The notes under the pieces were generated by a model that worked only from the letters and a program-made list of their open reading frames with translations, was not told where the DNA came from and searched no databases. 23,288 nt of DNA from Candidatus Aenigmatarchaeota archaeon. Its GTDB lineage: Archaea; Aenigmatarchaeota; Aenigmatarchaeia; QMZP01. The stretch is taken from positions 14,045 to 37,332 of the forward strand of contig JAWCLA010000004.1 of the NCBI GenBank assembly GCA_039091855.1, read 5' to 3'. A program made the translations under genes and the position numbers. Shown in pieces: positions 4,274 through 23,288 of this stretch (position 1 is its first letter; every line of letters starts with the position of its first letter).

Positions 4274-4548
4274 TTGTTGGGTGTTTCATTTTTAACGTAT
4301 GCGATTAAGAGAAGTTTTGCGTGACCAAAATTTTGGAGATCGCAAAGTCCCTCTTAATCGCTGTTCAACAACTGAAACCGAAGCGTGAGTTGAGGCACCA
4401 ACTGCCGAAAAGCTGTGGGGTGCAGCCATCGGTCTTTAGTTGTTTCTTGTTGTCCAGAATGCCATTCTGGGAAAGTTGGGCACAATAAAACTAATTGTTT
4501 GTCCACAACATATTTCCCAGAACCAGTAAGAAAAACATCAGCCAACAA
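4274..4548 (+). ncRNA. Candidate ~275-nt multi-domain structured RNA of unknown family
   Basis: Closing stem 4274-4286/4533-4548. Internal stems 4301-4311/4351-4361 (11 bp perfect), 4367-4381/4429-4444 and 4465-4474/4513-4522 (10 bp perfect). G-U pairs favour the + strand. Confidence 0.45.
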
Positions 4549-5943: not shown

Positions 5944-7605
5944 ATGAAGGATTTGATACTGAAATATGCACTTCAGAACGCTGTTTTTTATAACGGCAAG
6001 GCTGACCCCAAAGCCGTTCTCGGAAAGGTGATGGCAGGGGAGCCTGAGCTGAGGAAAAGGATAGAGGAAGTCAGAAAGGAAATAGAAAAAGCGATAGAAA
6101 AGGTTAACAGCCTTTCCCTTGAAGAGCAGAGAAAAATGCTTGAAAAGATTGCGCCCGAGCTTCTTCAAAAGGAGGAAAGGAAGCAGGAAGGGCTTCCCGA
6201 ACTGCCTGGTGCAAAAATGGGAAAGGTAGTCACGAGGTTTGCACCTTCACCGACAGGGCCGCTGAACATATCCCACGTATTGAGGGCTGTGATGCTTAAC
6301 TACCTTTACGCGAAGAAGTACAAAGGAAGATTCATCCTCAGGATTGAGGACACAGACCCATCCAAAATAGGCACTGAATATTACGATATGATAAAAAGCG
6401 ACCTAAGAAGCATAGGGGTTAAGCCTGACAAAATAGTTGTGCAGTCAGAAAGGATGAAAAGGTATTACAAGTACGCAGAGCTCCTAATAAGAAGGGGGAA
6501 GATTTTTGCCTGCTTCTGCCCGTCTGAAAAATTCAGAAACCTTAAAGAAAAAAAGAAAAGCTGCCCTGACGAGAACTCCACTCCTTCCCGAAACCTCAAG
6601 GCTTGGAATTACGCACTGAAGGGAAAGTACAAAGAGGGTGAGGTTGTTTTCAGGCTGAGGACATCAATGAGCGAGCCAAATCCCGCTCTGAGGAACCCTC
6701 CAATGCTGAGGGTATGTGATGACAGGCATCCGATTCAGGGAAGCAAGTACAAGGTATGGCCGCTTTACAATTACGCAAATGTGATTGACGACCACGAGCT
6801 CAAGGTCACTCACGTGTTCAGGGGAAAGGAACACGAGCACAACACAGCGATACAGAAAAGGCTCTATGATGCCTTGAAATGGAAGCCGCCTGTTGTTTTG
6901 AACTTTGGGATGATATACCTTCCTGGGGAAAAGATTCACACAAGGGACATAAGGGAGTGGATAAGGGAGAAAAGGGTTTCTGGTTGGGACGACCCAAAGC
7001 TTCACACCATCAGGGCATTGTTAAGGAGAGGCTTTCTCCCAAAGACATTCCAGCTTCTTTCCATACAGACAGGGCTTTCAAAGACTGACATAAGGCTAAG
7101 TTGGGAGAACATAGAGGGAGTAAACAGGAAGGTCATAGACCCTGTCGCAAACAGGTACATGGTTGTCACAGAGCCTGTCAGGATATCGGTTATGTCTGCT
7201 CCTGAAATAAGGGAAGTTTACGAGCCCTTGCACCCGGACTTTCCGAGAAGGGGGAGGAAAAAAATTCCCGTTGACCTCAAACAGATATGGATTTCTGGCG
7301 AGGACTTCAGGAACCTTCAGGGGAAGGAGTTCAGGCTCAAGGGACTTGGAAACATTCATTTAAGGGGAAATGAAGGCTATTACACAGGAAACCAGATCTT
7401 GGGTGACATGCAAAAAATCCAGTGGGTTTCGGAGCCTAATGTTAAGGTTAATATTGTAAAGCCTGAAAAAACTATAGAAGGGCTTGGAGAGCCGAACCTC
7501 TTGAAGCTTAAGCCTGGGGCTCTCATACAGATGGAAAGGATTGGCTTTGGAAAGGTTGACAGAGTTAGCAAAAATGAAGTTGTGATATTCTTCGCCCATA
7601 AATAA
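5944..7605 (+). CDS. gltX: Glutamate--tRNA ligase, archaeal type
   Basis: KYALQNA, VVTRFAPSPTGPL, FILRIEDTDP, WPLYNYANVIDDH..THVFRGKEH, SGWDDPKL.T, IQMERIGF. Start taken at ATG 5944. Confidence 0.95.
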   Translation: MKDLILKYALQNAVFYNGKADPKAVLGKVMAGEPELRKRIEEVRKEIEKAIEKVNSLSLEEQRKMLEKIAPELLQKEERKQEGLPELPGAKMGKVVTRFAPSPTGPLNISHVLRAVMLNYLYAKKYKGRFILRIEDTDPSKIGTEYYDMIKSDLRSIGVKPDKIVVQSERMKRYYKYAELLIRRGKIFACFCPSEKFRNLKEKKKSCPDENSTPSRNLKAWNYALKGKYKEGEVVFRLRTSMSEPNPALRNPPMLRVCDDRHPIQGSKYKVWPLYNYANVIDDHELKVTHVFRGKEHEHNTAIQKRLYDALKWKPPVVLNFGMIYLPGEKIHTRDIREWIREKRVSGWDDPKLHTIRALLRRGFLPKTFQLLSIQTGLSKTDIRLSWENIEGVNRKVIDPVANRYMVVTEPVRISVMSAPEIREVYEPLHPDFPRRGRKKIPVDLKQIWISGEDFRNLQGKEFRLKGLGNIHLRGNEGYYTGNQILGDMQKIQWVSEPNVKVNIVKPEKTIEGLGEPNLLKLKPGALIQMERIGFGKVDRVSKNEVVIFFAHK

Positions 7606-11906: not shown

Positions 11907-12208
11907 ATTCCCCTGCTTTTATAGGTTGGCAAGTTGTTTGCACAACAGAGGTAAGCCGAAAATATGTTTTGATAATATGACACCTTGGTCACTCTGCGGG
12001 CTAATGCCCGCAGTATAATTGGTTCAGGTGTCATAAATATTACTTGCGCTTCATACCCAACTGAAGCAGGGAATTCCCGCCTCTATGTTACTTATTTTAA
12101 TTCTGGAAAACTCTGAATTTGGAAGCGCTTTCAATCTGGAAGATGTGCGGCATCAAAGCTTGTAGGTTAAGGGCCAAGCCTTTGTCATTTGCTAAATTCC
12201 AGAGTTAA
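11907..12208. other. Highly base-pairable intergenic region (candidate ncRNA or leader) between divergent cca and CBS genes
   Basis: Stems 11976-11985/12026-12035 (10 bp perfect), 11994-12001/12006-12013, 12048-12053/12062-12067, 11907-11919/12063-12074 and 12097-12108/12197-12208. Confidence 0.45.
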
Positions 12209-12223
12209 TTTGAAGAGCCGAAA

Positions 12224-12239
12224 AGCGAAAACTTATATA
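12224..12239 (+). promoter_or_regulatory. BRE/TATA promoter of the CBS-Toprim-dnaG gene run
   Basis: agcgaaaa-cttatata about 30 nt upstream of ATG 12269, typical archaeal spacing for a short-leader or leaderless transcript. Confidence 0.6.
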
Positions 12240-12268
12240 GTTGTTTCACAACAATCTATTGTGGTTTG

Positions 12269-13126
12269 ATGTTGAGCCTTTTCAGGAAAAAGCAAACTCA
12301 GGAAAGCGGTTGCGGCTTAAACATAACCAATTTTGCAAATCCTGGGGATTCTGTCCTTAGGATTGCTTCAAGGGGGGTTTTATATTCTTCTGAAAACAGC
12401 GGCGTCATAGACGCGCTTGGTTATATGCTTAGCGGTATCAGAAGGCTGCCTGTTGTGGACGAGAACGAGAGGCTGACAGGAATTGTCTCCACAACAGATG
12501 TTTTGGACTTCATAGGAGGAGGGGAAAAGCACAAGCTTTTCAGCAACACAGGGCTCAGCGCAAAGGTCAGGAAAATAATGTCTCCCTGCATTCATTTCGT
12601 TTCAGCAACCGACAGCATCCCTGTTGCTTTGGAAATATTCAAGGAAAGCGGAAAACCCATACAACCCGTTATGGAAGATAAAAAACTTGTTGGAGTGATT
12701 ACAGAAACAGACATAGTAAATCTCATGTCAAAGAGGACAGGGGTGAAGGTTTCTGACATAATGACAAGAAAACCGATAACAGTTGACAGGAACAAGTCTG
12801 TTTATGATGTTGCAAGAATGCTTTGCAGGGGACCTTACAGGAGATTGCCTGTGGTGAACAATGGCGTGCTTTTGGGGATTGTCACGCCTTACGACATTCT
12901 CTCTCACCTTAACTCAAAGGAGGCGCTCAACATGCTAAGGTTCGAAAACTCCCCCATAAAAGAGATAATGAGAAAGGATGTCGCTTACATCAGGCCTGAT
13001 GCCGACATTTACGAGGCAGTTGCAATGATGAAGATTAAAAAGGTCTCAGGCCTTCCTGTTGTTGACGAGGACGCTGACCTTCTCGGAATGATAACAAAGA
13101 GGGACATAATAAACGCAATGGGGTGA
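12269..13126 (+). CDS. CBS-domain protein (four CBS motifs)
   Basis: IRRLPVVDE..LTGIVSTTD, QPVMED.KLVGVITETD, YRRLPVVNN..LLGIVTPYD, SGLPVVDE..LLGMITKRD. Confidence 0.92.
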   Translation: MLSLFRKKQTQESGCGLNITNFANPGDSVLRIASRGVLYSSENSGVIDALGYMLSGIRRLPVVDENERLTGIVSTTDVLDFIGGGEKHKLFSNTGLSAKVRKIMSPCIHFVSATDSIPVALEIFKESGKPIQPVMEDKKLVGVITETDIVNLMSKRTGVKVSDIMTRKPITVDRNKSVYDVARMLCRGPYRRLPVVNNGVLLGIVTPYDILSHLNSKEALNMLRFENSPIKEIMRKDVAYIRPDADIYEAVAMMKIKKVSGLPVVDEDADLLGMITKRDIINAMG

Positions 13127-15174: not shown

Positions 15175-15369
15175 CTACTTCTTGAACTGCCCGACTGTCT
15201 TTACCAAATCCTTGTGGGTTAGAAAAAGAGAACGGCAGCAGTATCTCTCGAGACCGAGCTCGTCCAGGACCTTTTGCGGATTCCTTCCCTTCTTCACTTC
15301 CTTCTGGTATGTTTCCCAAAGATGACCTACCGGTTTCCCGCAGGTCATGCATCTTATAGGTATTATCAT
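15175..15369 (-). CDS. rpoN: DNA-directed RNA polymerase subunit N (Rpo10)
   Basis: MIIPIRCMTCGKPV...LDELGLERYCCRSLFLTH. Confidence 0.96.
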   Translation of the reverse strand: MIIPIRCMTCGKPVGHLWETYQKEVKKGRNPQKVLDELGLERYCCRSLFLTHKDLVKTVGQFKK

Positions 15370-15481
15370 ATGCTTCGCCTTGTGATAGCTCACATTATTA
15401 TTGTTTACCTTTCCGACTTGAAGGAGAAGTTCCTTCGGAACTTCCACTTAACCTTCGCCTTGTGACAATTCAATTTTGTCA
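15370..15481 (-). promoter_or_regulatory. Conserved leader element, copy 1 (upstream of rpoN)
   Basis: 15465->15405 is 48/61 identical without gaps to 16729-16789. Hairpin gaagttcc-gaa-ggaacttc. TCACAAGGCGAAG occurs twice (15465->15453 and 15385->15373). Confidence 0.75.
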
Positions 15482-15553
15482 AAACAGCATCTTTCTTGCC
15501 TTGGGTTCCATCTGCCTTATTGGAGGTACCATAATGACTTTTTGTTTTTGCAT

Positions 15554-15598
15554 TTTATATTTATAAAGTTTTCAGAGAAAGGATTAATCAGTTTAAAA
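15554..15598. promoter_or_regulatory. Divergent promoters for rpoN (-) and rpa (+)
   Basis: Minus strand gaaaactttataaatataaa (15573->15554). Plus strand tttaaaa at 15592-15598, about 23 nt before the rpa ATG. Confidence 0.5.
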
Positions 15599-15620
15599 CA
15601 ATTCAAATTGTGTGTTGGTT

Positions 15621-16628
15621 ATGTTTTCGCTTGAAGAGATTGTGGAGAAAATCTGCGAGCACACAGGGATGACACAGAAGAAGGTTTTACAGCTGATAGA
15701 CGAAAAGGAAGAAGAGCTTTCAGGACTTGTTTCAAGGGAGGGTGCCGCTTATATCGTTGCAAGGGAACTCGGGATAAGCCTTCTAAGGGAGACAAAAAGG
15801 CAGCTGAAGATAAAGAACCTCACAGACGGGCTGAGGTCTGTTGACCTCGTGGCAAGGATCATAGGAATATCCGAAATAAGGACATTTGAGAAGGAGGAGA
15901 GGAAAGGCAGCGTGGTCGGGCTTATTTTGGGTGACGAAACAGGTATGGTAAGGCTTCCTTTATGGAATGAGGAAGCTGACATAGTTTCTGACCTTGGGCT
16001 GAAAGAGGGCGACGTCATAAGGATAACAAGGGGATTTGTCAAGATGGACAACAGGGGAAACATCGAGCTAAGGATAGGCAGGGGAAAGATGGAGAAGGTT
16101 GAGGAGGAGGTAAATCTTCCAGAAGTGAACGAGATGAGCGGAAGCCTTGTTCCACAAAGAAAGCTGCTTTCCGAAGTCAAGGAGGGTGATATCGTTGAGA
16201 CAAGGGCTTGCATTGTTCAGCTTTTCAGGAAAAATCCCTTCTTCGAGGTTTGCTCCGAATGCGGTATGAGAATGAAGCCCAGGGCAGGAAAGCTGGTTTG
16301 CGACGAGCACGGGACAGTCAAGCCTGACTACCAGATTGTTATTTCAGGCGTGATAGATGACGGATACGGAAATGTCCGTGTGGTGTTTTTCAGGGAATTG
16401 GCAGAAAGGCTTTTCGGAAAAACTGCTGCTGAACTAAGGGCATTGGCGCAGGAGAAGGTTGATCCTCTGATTATTTACGACTTGTTTGATGTGTTAGGAA
16501 AGGATTACATAATTGCTGGAAGGGTAAGAAAGAACGAGCTCACCGAGAATCTTGAGCTTATAGCTAACAGGTTGGAGGAGCCTGACATAAGAAAGGAGTT
16601 TGAGCTTCTGTTAAAGGAAGTTTCATAG
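15621..16628 (+). CDS. rpa: Replication protein A (OB-folds plus zinc finger)
   Basis: N-terminal helical domain (GLVSREGAAYIVARELG), OB-fold LGDETGMVRLPLW, C-x2-C...C-x2-H finger, IDDGYGNVRVVFF. Confidence 0.9.
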   Translation: MFSLEEIVEKICEHTGMTQKKVLQLIDEKEEELSGLVSREGAAYIVARELGISLLRETKRQLKIKNLTDGLRSVDLVARIIGISEIRTFEKEERKGSVVGLILGDETGMVRLPLWNEEADIVSDLGLKEGDVIRITRGFVKMDNRGNIELRIGRGKMEKVEEEVNLPEVNEMSGSLVPQRKLLSEVKEGDIVETRACIVQLFRKNPFFEVCSECGMRMKPRAGKLVCDEHGTVKPDYQIVISGVIDDGYGNVRVVFFRELAERLFGKTAAELRALAQEKVDPLIIYDLFDVLGKDYIIAGRVRKNELTENLELIANRLEEPDIRKEFELLLKEVS

Positions 16629-16692
16629 ATATTTAAGATTTAAATACAACATCAAATTGTGGGTTGCATTTATATTTGTTGGATTGCCAAAA

Positions 16693-16819
16693 ATGGAAAT
16701 TAAAAGGTTTGAGAAACCAAGTTTTCCATCACGAGGCAAAATTTAATTGGAAGCTTCGAAGGAGCTTCTCCGTTAAGTCATAAGGGTAATGACAGCCTGA
16801 ATTGTCACAGGCGAGGCAT
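16693..16819 (+). promoter_or_regulatory. Conserved leader element, copy 2 (upstream of radA)
   Basis: Homologous to the rpoN leader. Hairpin gaagcttc-gaa-ggagcttc (16750-16768). Ends TCACAGGCGAGGCAT-ATG. Confidence 0.75.
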
Positions 16820-17818
16820 ATGCCAAGGCTTTCAAAGGAAAAGGACATAGAGGAAGAGCAGGAAAAATCCACAATAGAGGATGAGCTCAGGAGCATACCA
16901 GGAATAGGGGAAAAAACAATAGAAAAGCTCAGGGAAAGCGGTTATGACAACCTTATGGCTATAGCCGCCGCGATGGCTTCTGACCTAGCTGCTGCTTCTG
17001 GTATTGGTGAGGAGACTGCAAACAAGATAATAAATGCCGCAAGAAGCAAGCTAAAAATGGGGTTTGAGCCCGCTAGCGAGGTATTGAAGAAGAGGGAAAG
17101 CATAGCTAAAATAACAACAGGCTCAAAGGCTCTCGATAGTCTTCTGGGAGGAGGCGTGGAAACGCAGGCAATACTGGAAGCCCATGGAGCGTTCGGCTCT
17201 GGGAAATCACAGCTTGCCCACCAGCTCGCTGTAAATGTACAGCTTCCACGTGAAAGAGGCGGGCTGGAGGGAAAGGCGGTATTCATAGACACAGAGCAGA
17301 CATTCAGGCCCGAAAGGATTGTTGACATGGCAAAGGCATTGGGCATTGACCCCAACAAGGCGCTGGAAAACGTGTTCGTTGCAAGGGCCTACAACTCAGA
17401 CCACCAGATTCTTCTTGCTGAAAAGGCAGAGGAGGTCATAAAGAGGGAAAACGTAAAGCTTATTGTTATAGACTCCCTTACTGCATCTTTCAGGAGCGAC
17501 TATATGGGCAGGGGAACCCTTGCGAACAGGCAGCAGAAGCTGAACCGACACCTTCACCACTTGCAGAGGATGGCAGACGTGTACAACCTTGCTGTTTATG
17601 TGACTAACCAAGTGATGGCAAGGCCTGACATACTTTTCGGCGACCCGACCGCGCCGATAGGGGGACACATAGTCGGGCATCAGGCAACATACAGGCTCTA
17701 CCTGAGAAAAAGCAAGGAAAACAAGAGAATAGCAAAGCTCATAGACTCGCCGTGGCTTCCCGAGGGAGAAACAGTTTTCACAGTAGGGACAGAGGGAATA
17801 AGGGACGTCGAGGATTAG
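16820..17818 (+). CDS. radA: DNA repair and recombination protein RadA
   Basis: N-terminal HhH (IPGIGEKT), [15 protein letters not shown], Walker [23 protein letters not shown], Walker B LIVIDS, TNQV, GGHIVGH. Confidence 0.97.
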
Positions 17819-21849: not shown

Positions 21850-23007
21850 TTATTTTCCTGACAGTGCCAAAAATACCAGTAAAAGTGAGAACATTCCTGC
21901 TATCTCAAAACCTATCGCTATACTTTGCGAAGAATATAGAAGCGTTATTGTGGTCAAAATCACAAAAACAGTCTTTCCGGCACCGAGCCAGAAGTCCCTG
22001 AAAACCACCCAGTTGAGCATATTCCCTTTCTTTGCCTTTTCGCAGAATTCAACATAGATGGGAACGCTTATTATTGTAGTGAATATTCCAGCAAGCATTG
22101 ACGCAAGAAATGCCTCAACAGGAGTCTCGATGAAAAGTCTTACTATGCAGGTAAGGGTGTATCCGAGAGAGCCGTATATTAGCATATTCCTGCGCCTTTG
22201 TGCGCTTGCGCTGAACTTTCCAACAAAAAGGGTGAGTATCGCTATCCCTGCACCGAAAAACGAGGCCGACAGTCCGGTGAAAAGCAAACCGAATTTCTGG
22301 TATACAAAAATGTTCCAGAGCAGAAAATCGTTTGCGAATATCACGCCCTGCACTATGAAAAATGCAAAGGATTTCCTCTCAAGGAAAAGCCAGGACTGCC
22401 TCATCCTAAGGCTGAAGCTCTTCTTGTAGTCCTTTGTGAGCAGGAATGGAATTTGGGAAATCGCTATCAGGGAGATAACTATTATAAAAACCTGAGAGAA
22501 GCCGATTTTGGACAGGAGGAAAGCTCCTATAAATGGAGCGACGGTTGCAGATATCTGAGGAAGGGCTGTAAGATAGCCAACCTGCACGGCGCTGTTTACT
22601 ATGTCCGAGTTCTTGACGAATTCTGCGTTGGTGGCAACCCAGTAAAGAATTGCCGAGAAGCCACCGAGAAGAGCAACGAAAAAAATGAAATCCGTTATGT
22701 AATTGACAAAGAAAAGCAAGGAGAAAAAAACTATTAGCATAGGAGCCCTGTATATTATCGTGTGCTTGAAGCCAATCCTTGCAGATATCTCTGCAGCTAA
22801 TGGGGTGAGCAAAAACATTGCACCCCAGTAAACCAGCATAAAGGAGAAGGATGTAACAATTGTGAACCCGTTCTCTATCAGGTATATGGGAATGAAGATG
22901 CTTATCAGTGAAACCGCAAAGGTCTCTATCACCTGGTTGAAATATATCTCTCCCATCTCGTCCTTCAGACGGGTTATGTTGAAAAGGGTTCTCAATTGTC
23001 TGTACAT
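21850..23007 (-). CDS. MFS transporter
   Basis: About 12 hydrophobic helices. SLISIFIPIYL, ARIGFKH loop motif, APFIGAFLL. Confidence 0.88.
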   Translation of the reverse strand: MYRQLRTLFNITRLKDEMGEIYFNQVIETFAVSLISIFIPIYLIENGFTIVTSFSFMLVYWGAMFLLTPLAAEISARIGFKHTIIYRAPMLIVFFSLLFFVNYITDFIFFVALLGGFSAILYWVATNAEFVKNSDIVNSAVQVGYLTALPQISATVAPFIGAFLLSKIGFSQVFIIVISLIAISQIPFLLTKDYKKSFSLRMRQSWLFLERKSFAFFIVQGVIFANDFLLWNIFVYQKFGLLFTGLSASFFGAGIAILTLFVGKFSASAQRRRNMLIYGSLGYTLTCIVRLFIETPVEAFLASMLAGIFTTIISVPIYVEFCEKAKKGNMLNWVVFRDFWLGAGKTVFVILTTITLLYSSQSIAIGFEIAGMFSLLLVFLALSGK

Positions 23008-23288
23008 ACACTTCGCCTTTTTAAAAACCAGGCTCCTTAGAAAAACACATAATGAGTCTTCCTTTCTAATAATTTATTGAAAAACAGAAAGGAAGGAGCC
23101 TCATAACTATTAAGGTTAACCATATAATAAAGCTGATTCCTTCGCTTCAACTCAATTATCTATGCAGTTTTTGTTCAGACAGTTTTTGGAAAGACGATTT
23201 ATTATATTGTCTAAAGTCTTCAATCGCTACAGGTTCCGAAAAATATAAACTCTATCAATTTTTATGGAGGGTTATAAACAGATCCAAC

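Follow-up and report, generated by a model that had tools for sequence, protein, structure and literature searches.

In a stretch of 23,288 nucleotides from a Candidatus Aenigmatarchaeota archaeon (assembly GCA_039091855.1, contig JAWCLA010000004.1, positions 14,045 to 37,332; the whole stretch is referred to as the window) the genes rpoN and radA are preceded by leaders that share a hairpin and a short box next to the start codon, and the question raised by this locus is whether the shared sequence regulates these two genes or is something else. The original prediction was an undescribed regulatory RNA or operator that co-controls an RNA polymerase subunit and the recombinase, probably at translation initiation. 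We report that a regulator specific for this pair is rejected and that the element is a dispersed hairpin leader repeat: the two leaders share a unit of a type that belongs to a repeat family with 40 strong matches, spread over 22 loci of this genome and located in front of many unrelated genes. With slightly better than even confidence we further suggest that the repeat is a duplicating promoter/5'-leader cassette, the last box of which would act as ribosome-binding site, rather than a regulator specific for rpoN and radA.

The description of the two leaders held up. The sequence upstream of rpoN (15465 to 15405, minus strand) and that upstream of radA (16729-16789, plus strand) align without gaps and are identical at 48 of 61 positions, compared with a best value of 34 and a mean of 29.7 in a shuffle control for 61-mers (60 mononucleotide shuffles, two intergenic regions). 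Between their hairpins one pair shows a double change from U-A to C-G and another a change from C-G to U-G, and an identical box, followed by CAT-ATG, closes both leaders. Pfam confirmed the gene identities (RNA_pol_N, E 3.9e-27, and Rad51, E 8.3e-93). A structured, covarying element is present in sense orientation ahead of both start codons. It also falls outside Rfam, which gave no match at E ≤ 1 over the whole window on both strands.

The rpoN leader consists of one 80-nt unit and a terminal box, all on the minus strand. The unit is opened by the first box (TGTCACAAGGCGAAG; 15453-15467), the same box that starts nearly every unit genome-wide, and continues with the hairpin (15423-15445), which has a fixed base, GGAAG/CTTC(U)CC, a variable 4-bp middle and a GAA loop as judged from the fold and from covariation over 48 distinct copies. 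A 3' flank and an A-rich tail, referred to as 'M', follow without conserved structure (15386-15422). The terminal box (15373-15385) and a 3-nt spacer (15370-15372), together 15370-15385, abut the ATG (15369-15367) and constitute a putative Shine-Dalgarno-like (SD-like) ribosome-binding site; the coding sequence (CDS; 15178-15369, 64 codons, Pfam RNA_pol_N) begins with MIIPIRC, an N-terminus conserved across the family. The radA leader, on the plus strand, comprises an older, more diverged unit and a terminal box: a diverged first box (16729-16742), a hairpin with the middle CUUC/GGAG, one U-G pair and a GAA loop (16749-16771), the 3' flank (GTTAAGTC) and tail (16772-16802), and the terminal box (16803-16816, the consensus minus one base) with its CAT spacer (16817-16819; box and spacer 16803-16819), which abuts the ATG (16820-16822) of the radA CDS (16820-17818, Pfam Rad51 and HHH_5).

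The window's own genome (G000; 689 kb, 38 contigs, 84% complete) contains 19 matches to a 25-base leader pattern with at most three mismatches, versus none for the reversed pattern. A covariance model, R1, was built from 30 copies found in this genome. Together with a profile search R1 gave 40 strong matches (E ~1e-16 to 1.2e-5), 30 of which are the model's own training sequences, and 14 further weak matches that are mostly solitary boxes. The two copies in the window scored 73.9 and 64.0 bits (E ~1e-17 and 1e-14), and as both are among the 30 building sequences these scores are non-independent. The matches group into 22 arrays of one to six units each. Every unit consists of a box (TGTCACAAGGCGAAG; also given as GTCACAAGGCGAAG), a short linker with the hairpin, and one of three tails, giving unit lengths of ~65-68, 80-82 and 116-122 nt depending on the tail type. 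The hairpin has 9-10 bp with a constant base, GGAAG/CTTC-U-CC, a mostly GAA loop and a variable middle of 4-5 bp. Units are arranged head to tail and in sense, and the series closes with an extra box, typically 3-4 nt ahead of the start codon. The copies are mosaics of reassorted stems, linkers and tails, and one stem type can be found with several flanks and tails. In the DNA contigs of four runs the depth over 15344-15491 is 8-16 times that of the flanks; backward joints of 68 and 80 nt in these contigs are the product of tandem copies, and one contig spans the radA leader. The repeats also break assemblies: contig breaks lie inside the repeat, and two of the arrays run off contig ends.

Structural constraint on the hairpin is certain because its middle comes in 25 compensatory stem variants, a natural series that was analysed in an alignment of 50 copies (48 distinct) from the window's genome and four congeners, aligned to the model. 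Pairing is found in 96.3% of 383 cells versus 80.5% after shuffling, and two-sided changes affect 63 cells versus 16.2 in the shuffles, none of which (0/500) reached 63. When the partner strand was slid by 1-3 columns only 37-61% of the positions paired. Together the 25 distinct middles contain 106 Watson-Crick, five U-G and one A-C pair, and some can be ordered along a stepwise path, e.g. UCGGC/GCCGA to UUGGC/GCCGA to UUGGC/GCCAA. The stems accept U-G and not its equivalent on the antisense strand, which favours a fold of the sense strand, as RNA or as single-stranded DNA. No other conserved helix was detected in full units with RNAalifold, and the A-rich tail is without structure. A further helix outside the hairpin (CUCAA/UUGAG, UUAAU/GUUAA) can be drawn for some units only, not for the commonest type, was not recovered by RNAalifold and was rejected. 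A switch in which the box pairs with the CUUCUCC strand was also set aside, the hairpin being far more stable.

As expected by the original prediction, the model matches mostly lie in sense ahead of genes: 18 of the 20 assessable arrays are in sense orientation and upstream of a gene, and in 14 of the 20 the last box is positioned 2-6 nt before the start codon of an open reading frame (ORF). In the other four sense and upstream arrays the box is followed by a canonical SD sequence, is followed by an 18-codon ORF, lies ~90 nt upstream of the start, or precedes a pilin-like gene (contig C12) in which the array's box is located within the open frame. The genes after the arrays encode, according to Pfam, aEF-1beta, a MinD/ParA ATPase, L37Ae, S8e, RpoN, RadA and a small EF-Tu-domain-2 protein; from their translations we also read a CPSF-like protein, an NrdR-ribonucleotide reductase fusion, a tRNA-binding protein and several small membrane proteins. 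The pilin-like gene (C12 15093-15420) has AAG where the other genes have ATG after the last box, and a short, typical prepilin leader (MNCGKAKLKG) would result if translation began at an in-frame TTG, which lies 10 codons ahead of the Gly-Gln cleavage motif. Contig C11 (~12050-12290; locus L027, 1427-1660) holds what we read as a tRNA-Met-like gene with a CAU anticodon loop, in which an interruption of ~170 nt after the anticodon contains one full antisense unit between two antisense boxes; an apparent second interruption follows the T-loop. Standard tRNA finders recover very little in this organism: for the whole genome ARAGORN, with introns allowed, predicted four tRNAs, three of which have introns, and Rfam gave two sub-threshold tRNA matches; no tRNA was predicted by ARAGORN in the window or in 15 loci.

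The repeat family is restricted to this genus and one neighbouring genus. R1 matches were obtained in all four other genomes of the same genus (7, 4, 4 and 2), and 11 matches, with a longer stem, in one genome of another genus (G047), while the other 55 relatives searched gave nothing under stricter filters and from incomplete genomes. An exact-pattern search of 40 relatives produced no match, and the covariance model was needed. A gapped 19-base pattern run over 185,579 species genomes (one each) resulted in 63 matches, with ~60 estimated by chance; seven of the 63 belong to the family, all in four metagenome-assembled genomes titled Aenigmatarchaeota or 'archaeon', and of these seven, six have a self-complementary middle and one is paired except for a mismatch in the first pair. 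The literature, at the level of titles and abstracts without supplements, provided no description of such a repeat for Aenigmatarchaeota or DPANN. In the congeners a box and a start codon are present within 70 nt after 14 of 16 matches, at other genes, which in our reading encode L10e, L13, L14e, L15e, both RFC subunits, an Spt4-like protein and an acylphosphatase.

Comparison of orthologous sites argues against an element maintained for rpoN and radA. In all four congeners radA begins 20-45 nt after an RPA-like gene, has an ordinary SD sequence and lacks the unit, while radA in the window's genome is preceded by ~150 extra bases that include a TATA-like tract and the unit. The unique portion of this genome-specific insertion between the RPA-like gene and radA, as delimited by comparison with the four congeners, covers 16629-16728 (plus strand; TATA-like tract 16667-16679) and is single copy in the genome. 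A unit in front of rpoN is present in one of the three congeners having rpoN (G003), where the stem middle is completely different, and absent in the other two (G001 and G004); it is also absent in 26 further genomes of the family, which have a TATA box and mostly GGTGAT there. Reciprocally, of 14 element-bearing congener genes ten have an orthologue in the window's genome and two of these ten carry the hairpin here. Copies within the window's genome resemble each other more closely than they resemble those at the orthologous sites in sister species, and the rpoN repeat tract (100 nt) is 96% identical to the S8e-leader copy on another contig. Because of this identity, the reassortment of stems and the differences at orthologous sites, the copies appear to be homogenised or newly made within a genome and to turn over between species. 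Scatter irrespective of gene orientation and absence from relatives had been named in advance as observations that would speak against the original prediction; the repeat is dispersed and missing from the orthologous sites of relatives, and its orientation is non-random.

Three further observations were made. The RPA-like single-strand-binding gene between rpoN and radA (15621-16628, plus strand; OB fold, Rep_fac-A_C and a DUF2240 N-terminus) probably forms an operon with radA in the four congeners, since radA starts so shortly after it there, and in the window's genome the two are split by the repeat insertion. About 150 nt upstream of rpoN in G001 (contig C59, locus L109), above the rpoN TATA box, there is a hairpin of related design (GAAGGTGTC-TTCG-GACACCTTC) without the usual 3' flank or box, which may be a decayed unit or the terminator of the neighbouring gene. 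In G047 (contig C12 ~4296-4400, locus L067) a sequence that we read as tRNA-Thr(CGU)-like begins 5 nt downstream of a box, and the repeat units seemingly form the 5' leader of a tRNA.

With respect to the role in translation initiation, the part of the original prediction that stands is the position of the terminal box, which coincides with that of the SD core in this genome, so that such a role is plausible. Among the words enriched before start codons in the window's genome the canonical ones, GAGGTG, AGGTGA and GGTGAT, dominate, AGGCGA and GGCGAA form another class, and the core of the box, AGGCGA, is one base off the SD word AGGTGA. Among 392 well-defined starts 86 are SD-like, 15 are box-type and 291 are neither; the last class shows an A/T peak at -28 to -22, i.e. 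the leaderless archaeal pattern. The GGCG of the box is found at -10 to -7 and the G-rich A/T minimum of the SD-class genes at -13 to -8, and the terminal box is in this sense a purine-rich word at the genome's usual SD position. In a number of copies the box contains AGGTGA or GGAGGCGA, and rpoN orthologues in other genera have GGTGAT at the box position. The assembly contains no small-subunit (16S) rRNA gene, and any comparison with the anti-SD therefore refers to the canonical sequence and not to that of the host. Over 60 relatives the count of RAGGCGAW...ATG is above the reversed control nearly everywhere; it is inseparable from Lys-Ala-Lys codons and was for this reason not used.

The longest of the three tails, the P module, resembles a promoter. 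It is composed of an inverted repeat, GACG...CGTC, with covarying inner bases and a TATA-like loop, followed by TCGTCTTTCC and ~10 nt, and ~18 of 30 regular-expression matches are of this type. P heads many arrays, at times as two tandem copies, and P followed by box and ATG without a hairpin also occurs. It is also located 7-8 nt ahead of a tRNA-Arg(CCU) gene and, at the same distance, ahead of a second tRNA-like gene (sub-threshold Rfam match and our reading). The end of the TATA-like word of P is 22 nt away from the box, and in ordinary genes the motif model ends 22-23 nt before the ATG; this match in spacing predicts a transcription start at the first base or two of the box.

Taken as a promoter/leader cassette, the repeat would function as follows. 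The series of units would be transcribed as a 5' leader, starting either from an upstream TATA or from a repeat-borne P module with a geometry that puts the start at the first box; the ribosome-binding site would be the last box, and the hairpins would be structures of the leader RNA, most plausibly involved in 5'-end protection or in the tuning of initiation. Transcription through the units is favoured because many congener copies are without an A/T tract from hairpin to box, because the fold is strand specific and because the box behaves in an SD-like manner. Units would be gained, lost and copied between genes via recombination or template switching across the repeated box, which we infer from the absence of terminal inverted repeats, the identity of the direct repeats with the box and the lack of a link to Y1 transposases. 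Recombination across boxes would explain why units are in sense, why their junction is fixed and why they grow in tandem, and any gene with a box-type leader could thereby acquire units.

Several observations weigh against this cassette. One copy lies antisense within the apparent intron of the tRNA-Met-like gene (our reading; ARAGORN makes no call) and one array faces the 3' end of a convergent ORF, and placement is therefore not strictly leader-bound. The alignment behind the covariation statistics had been fitted to the model, and the majority of its rows are copies from one genome, related by recent copying, so that the shuffle statistics overstate independence. The C of the box faces an A of the canonical anti-SD, i.e. 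AGGCGA has one central mismatch. For the arrays as a whole no fixed TATA-to-box distance was found, the best upstream TATA being 3-61 nt from the first box. In last units of the M type the A/T-rich word ends 25 nt before the ATG, such that the gene could be leaderless and the box untranscribed promoter DNA; at the same time the best TATA scores of genes in the family are low (median ~3 versus 5.6 for ordinary genes) and off-position, and neither reading fits cleanly. Finally, recombination across boxes is deduced solely from the direct repeats.

Among the alternatives, a selfish single-strand-DNA hairpin element, either similar to repetitive extragenic palindromes (REP) and bacterial interspersed mosaic elements (BIME) or an IS200-type MITE (a miniature transposable element with inverted repeats), survives best, and we regard it as unlikely. 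Here a Y1 (HUH) transposase would recognise the hairpin as DNA and copies would be tolerated only in leaders and introns. This would agree with the closure of the loop as C(GAA)G, a motif of DNA mini-hairpins that are unusually stable, with the bulged T in the stem, which is also present in IS608 ends, with the presence/absence differences between sister species, and with the antisense copy in the tRNA-like intron. Moreover, the window's genome, which has by far most copies, contains two IS200-type Y1_Tnp genes 1.5 kb apart on contig C37 (7094-7453 and 9001-9324, minus strand), the first with an in-frame TAG. These genes are flanked by hairpins of the CCCCG(C/T)CAT/ATG(G/A)CGGGG type, which differ in sequence from the leader repeat; no TnpB was found, and the one sub-threshold match to the TnpB zinc ribbon (17.4 bits) is located in the L37Ae gene or next to it. 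None of the five other genomes with the element yielded Y1_Tnp, which is present in 13 element-free relatives, all of these genomes being incomplete. The unit ends are direct repeats of 13-21 nt rather than terminal inverted repeats, and the predominance of sense, upstream loci (18 of 20) with fixed spacing to the ATG also argues against such an element.

It is improbable, by our estimate, that the repeat is promoter DNA, with the tail as TATA, the box as the spacer between TATA and the start of a near-leaderless mRNA, and the palindrome GGAAG...CTTCC upstream as operator for a dimeric factor. Most genes of this genome are leaderless with an A/T peak at -28 to -22, the A/T word of the M tail ends 25 nt before the ATG, the P module is a plausible promoter inside an inverted repeat, and the box directly before the tRNA-like gene (our reading) in the other genus is unexplained by an SD role. 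A protein operator, however, needs no complementary middle, yet the 25 middles pair (U-G five times, A-C once), several congener copies lack an A/T-rich stretch that would separate hairpin from box, and the TATA scores before box-class genes are low and off-position. Of much the same low probability, or marginally lower, is that hairpin and box form a portable module of post-transcriptional control, in which the constant stem base and the GAA loop would dock a lineage-specific RNA-binding factor or the ribosome, and in which the mobile cassette, by copying itself from one box-type leader to another, would rewire a growth-related regulon between sister species. The regulon named for this reading comprises ribosomal proteins, RNA polymerase and replication factors, RadA and EF-1beta, and if it is true the membership of a growth regulon is rewired between sister species by a mobile element.

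We give little credence to the idea that each unit is a small-RNA gene, or a stable hairpin RNA that is cut from the leader and has its own function; internal P modules could fire at each next box and the unit ends are fixed, but there is no Rfam match and the sole variable part is the self-pairing stem middle, which is unable to guide. A dedicated cis-regulatory RNA or operator for rpoN and radA is very improbable: both genes do have a sense, covarying hairpin and the same box at the ATG, but the 22 loci precede unrelated genes, the radA copy is found in 0/4 and the rpoN copy in 1/3 congeners, and the copy before rpoN was duplicated recently from that of S8e. Weakest of all, and close to negligible, is a coding insertion of the Rickettsia palindromic element (RPE) kind, in which units would be translated as N-terminal extensions. 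The rpoN frame is open for 78 nt upstream to a GTG at 15447 and that of the pilin-like gene for 321 nt through the array, but most unit lengths cannot be divided by three, at most loci the frame upstream is closed after 0-78 nt and the RpoN N-termini of 29 genomes begin at the ATG after the box.

Dispersed repeats of this kind are known; what sets the family apart from BOX, Correia and REP elements is its archaeal host, the direct-repeat ends, the sense placement in leaders and a box that abuts the start codon. The pneumococcal BOX is similar in being a modular dispersed repeat (boxA, a tandem-variable boxB and boxC) that would form stem-loops if transcribed and is often upstream of genes. BOX elements raise or lower the expression of the downstream gene and have terminal inverted repeats, target duplications and an over-representation between convergent genes, as described in PMC3049150. 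The present family, in contrast, has direct-repeat ends, is mainly in sense and upstream, lets its last module abut the start codon, resides in an archaeon and has no sequence relationship to BOX. The Correia elements of Neisseria have terminal inverted repeats, a TA duplication and sigma-70 promoters, all of which the present family is without, and the latter adds an RBS-like (ribosome-binding-site-like) box at fixed distance from the ATG. They are multi-copy, mostly immediately upstream of genes, promoter-bearing, and co-transcribed and processed in leaders according to PMC10969869. The likeness thus is that of a promoter-bearing multi-copy element which is mostly upstream of genes.

REP and BIME are short GC-rich imperfect palindromes in high copy number that form mosaics of a few stem and linker types, with stems kept by pairing and not by sequence, and in both respects (mosaic palindromes and a stem conserved by pairing) the present repeat resembles them. 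REPs are mainly found after genes, in both orientations, and co-occur with a REP-flanked REP-associated tyrosine transposase (RAYT). No such co-occurrence with Y1_Tnp applies here (one of six element genomes, incomplete), and the hairpins that flank the Y1 genes are different. For BIME a role as attenuator is described (PMC3049150). As a hairpin repeat that spreads within small genomes the family resembles the RPEs. The latter are found as in-frame insertions within coding sequence (PMC10969869). In contrast, the copies of rpoN and radA are located outside the CDS, ahead of N-termini that are conserved, and have unit lengths that disrupt the frame. Lastly, the 5'-terminal stabiliser hairpins of bacterial mRNAs, e.g. 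in the ompA leader, consist of a stable stem-loop near the 5' end, an A-rich unstructured tract and a ribosome-binding site, and are single-copy and gene-specific; here a stem-loop is likewise followed by an A-rich tract and box, in a multi-copy element known from DNA sequence alone.

As regards features of MITEs, no terminal inverted repeats were found, the unit ends being the direct box and the only inverted repeat the internal hairpin; the flanking direct repeats of 13-21 nt belong to the unit, and Y1_Tnp was the only transposase sought. A CRISPR array was rejected, the whole period of 66-120 nt being conserved with a self-complementary 9-13-mer as the only variable stretch; cas genes were not searched. 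For a bulge-helix-bulge intron (two 3-nt bulges around a 4-bp helix), cuts at equal positions of two successive boxes would require a self-complementary 4-mer in the box, which contains none (by inspection only, no dedicated search).

These data remove a false lead, that of a riboregulator linking transcription and recombination, and replace it by a documented DPANN repeat family. They also show a 0.7-Mb, 90%-coding genome that hosts a self-amplifying non-coding element, tolerated in leaders and introns. The arrangement of the repeat suggests that whole expression signals, i.e. promoter module, leader and ribosome-binding site, are exchanged between genes in these organisms, and if true this matters for gene-start calling and promoter models in DPANN.

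Elsewhere in the window, on the minus strand, a promoter-like P module (23179-23225), with its inverted repeat around a TATA-like loop and then TCGTCTTTCC, precedes a ~170-nt unique leader that contains a 10-bp hairpin (CTTCCTTTCT...AGAAAGGAAG), and after this leader comes a solo box (23011-23023; 11.9 bits, E 0.14, weak on its own) located 3 nt before the ATG (23007-23005) of the ORF at 21850-23007. A similar start composed of P and leader is present near 6746 (minus strand) on contig C22, and this arrangement may represent a second repeated leader type.

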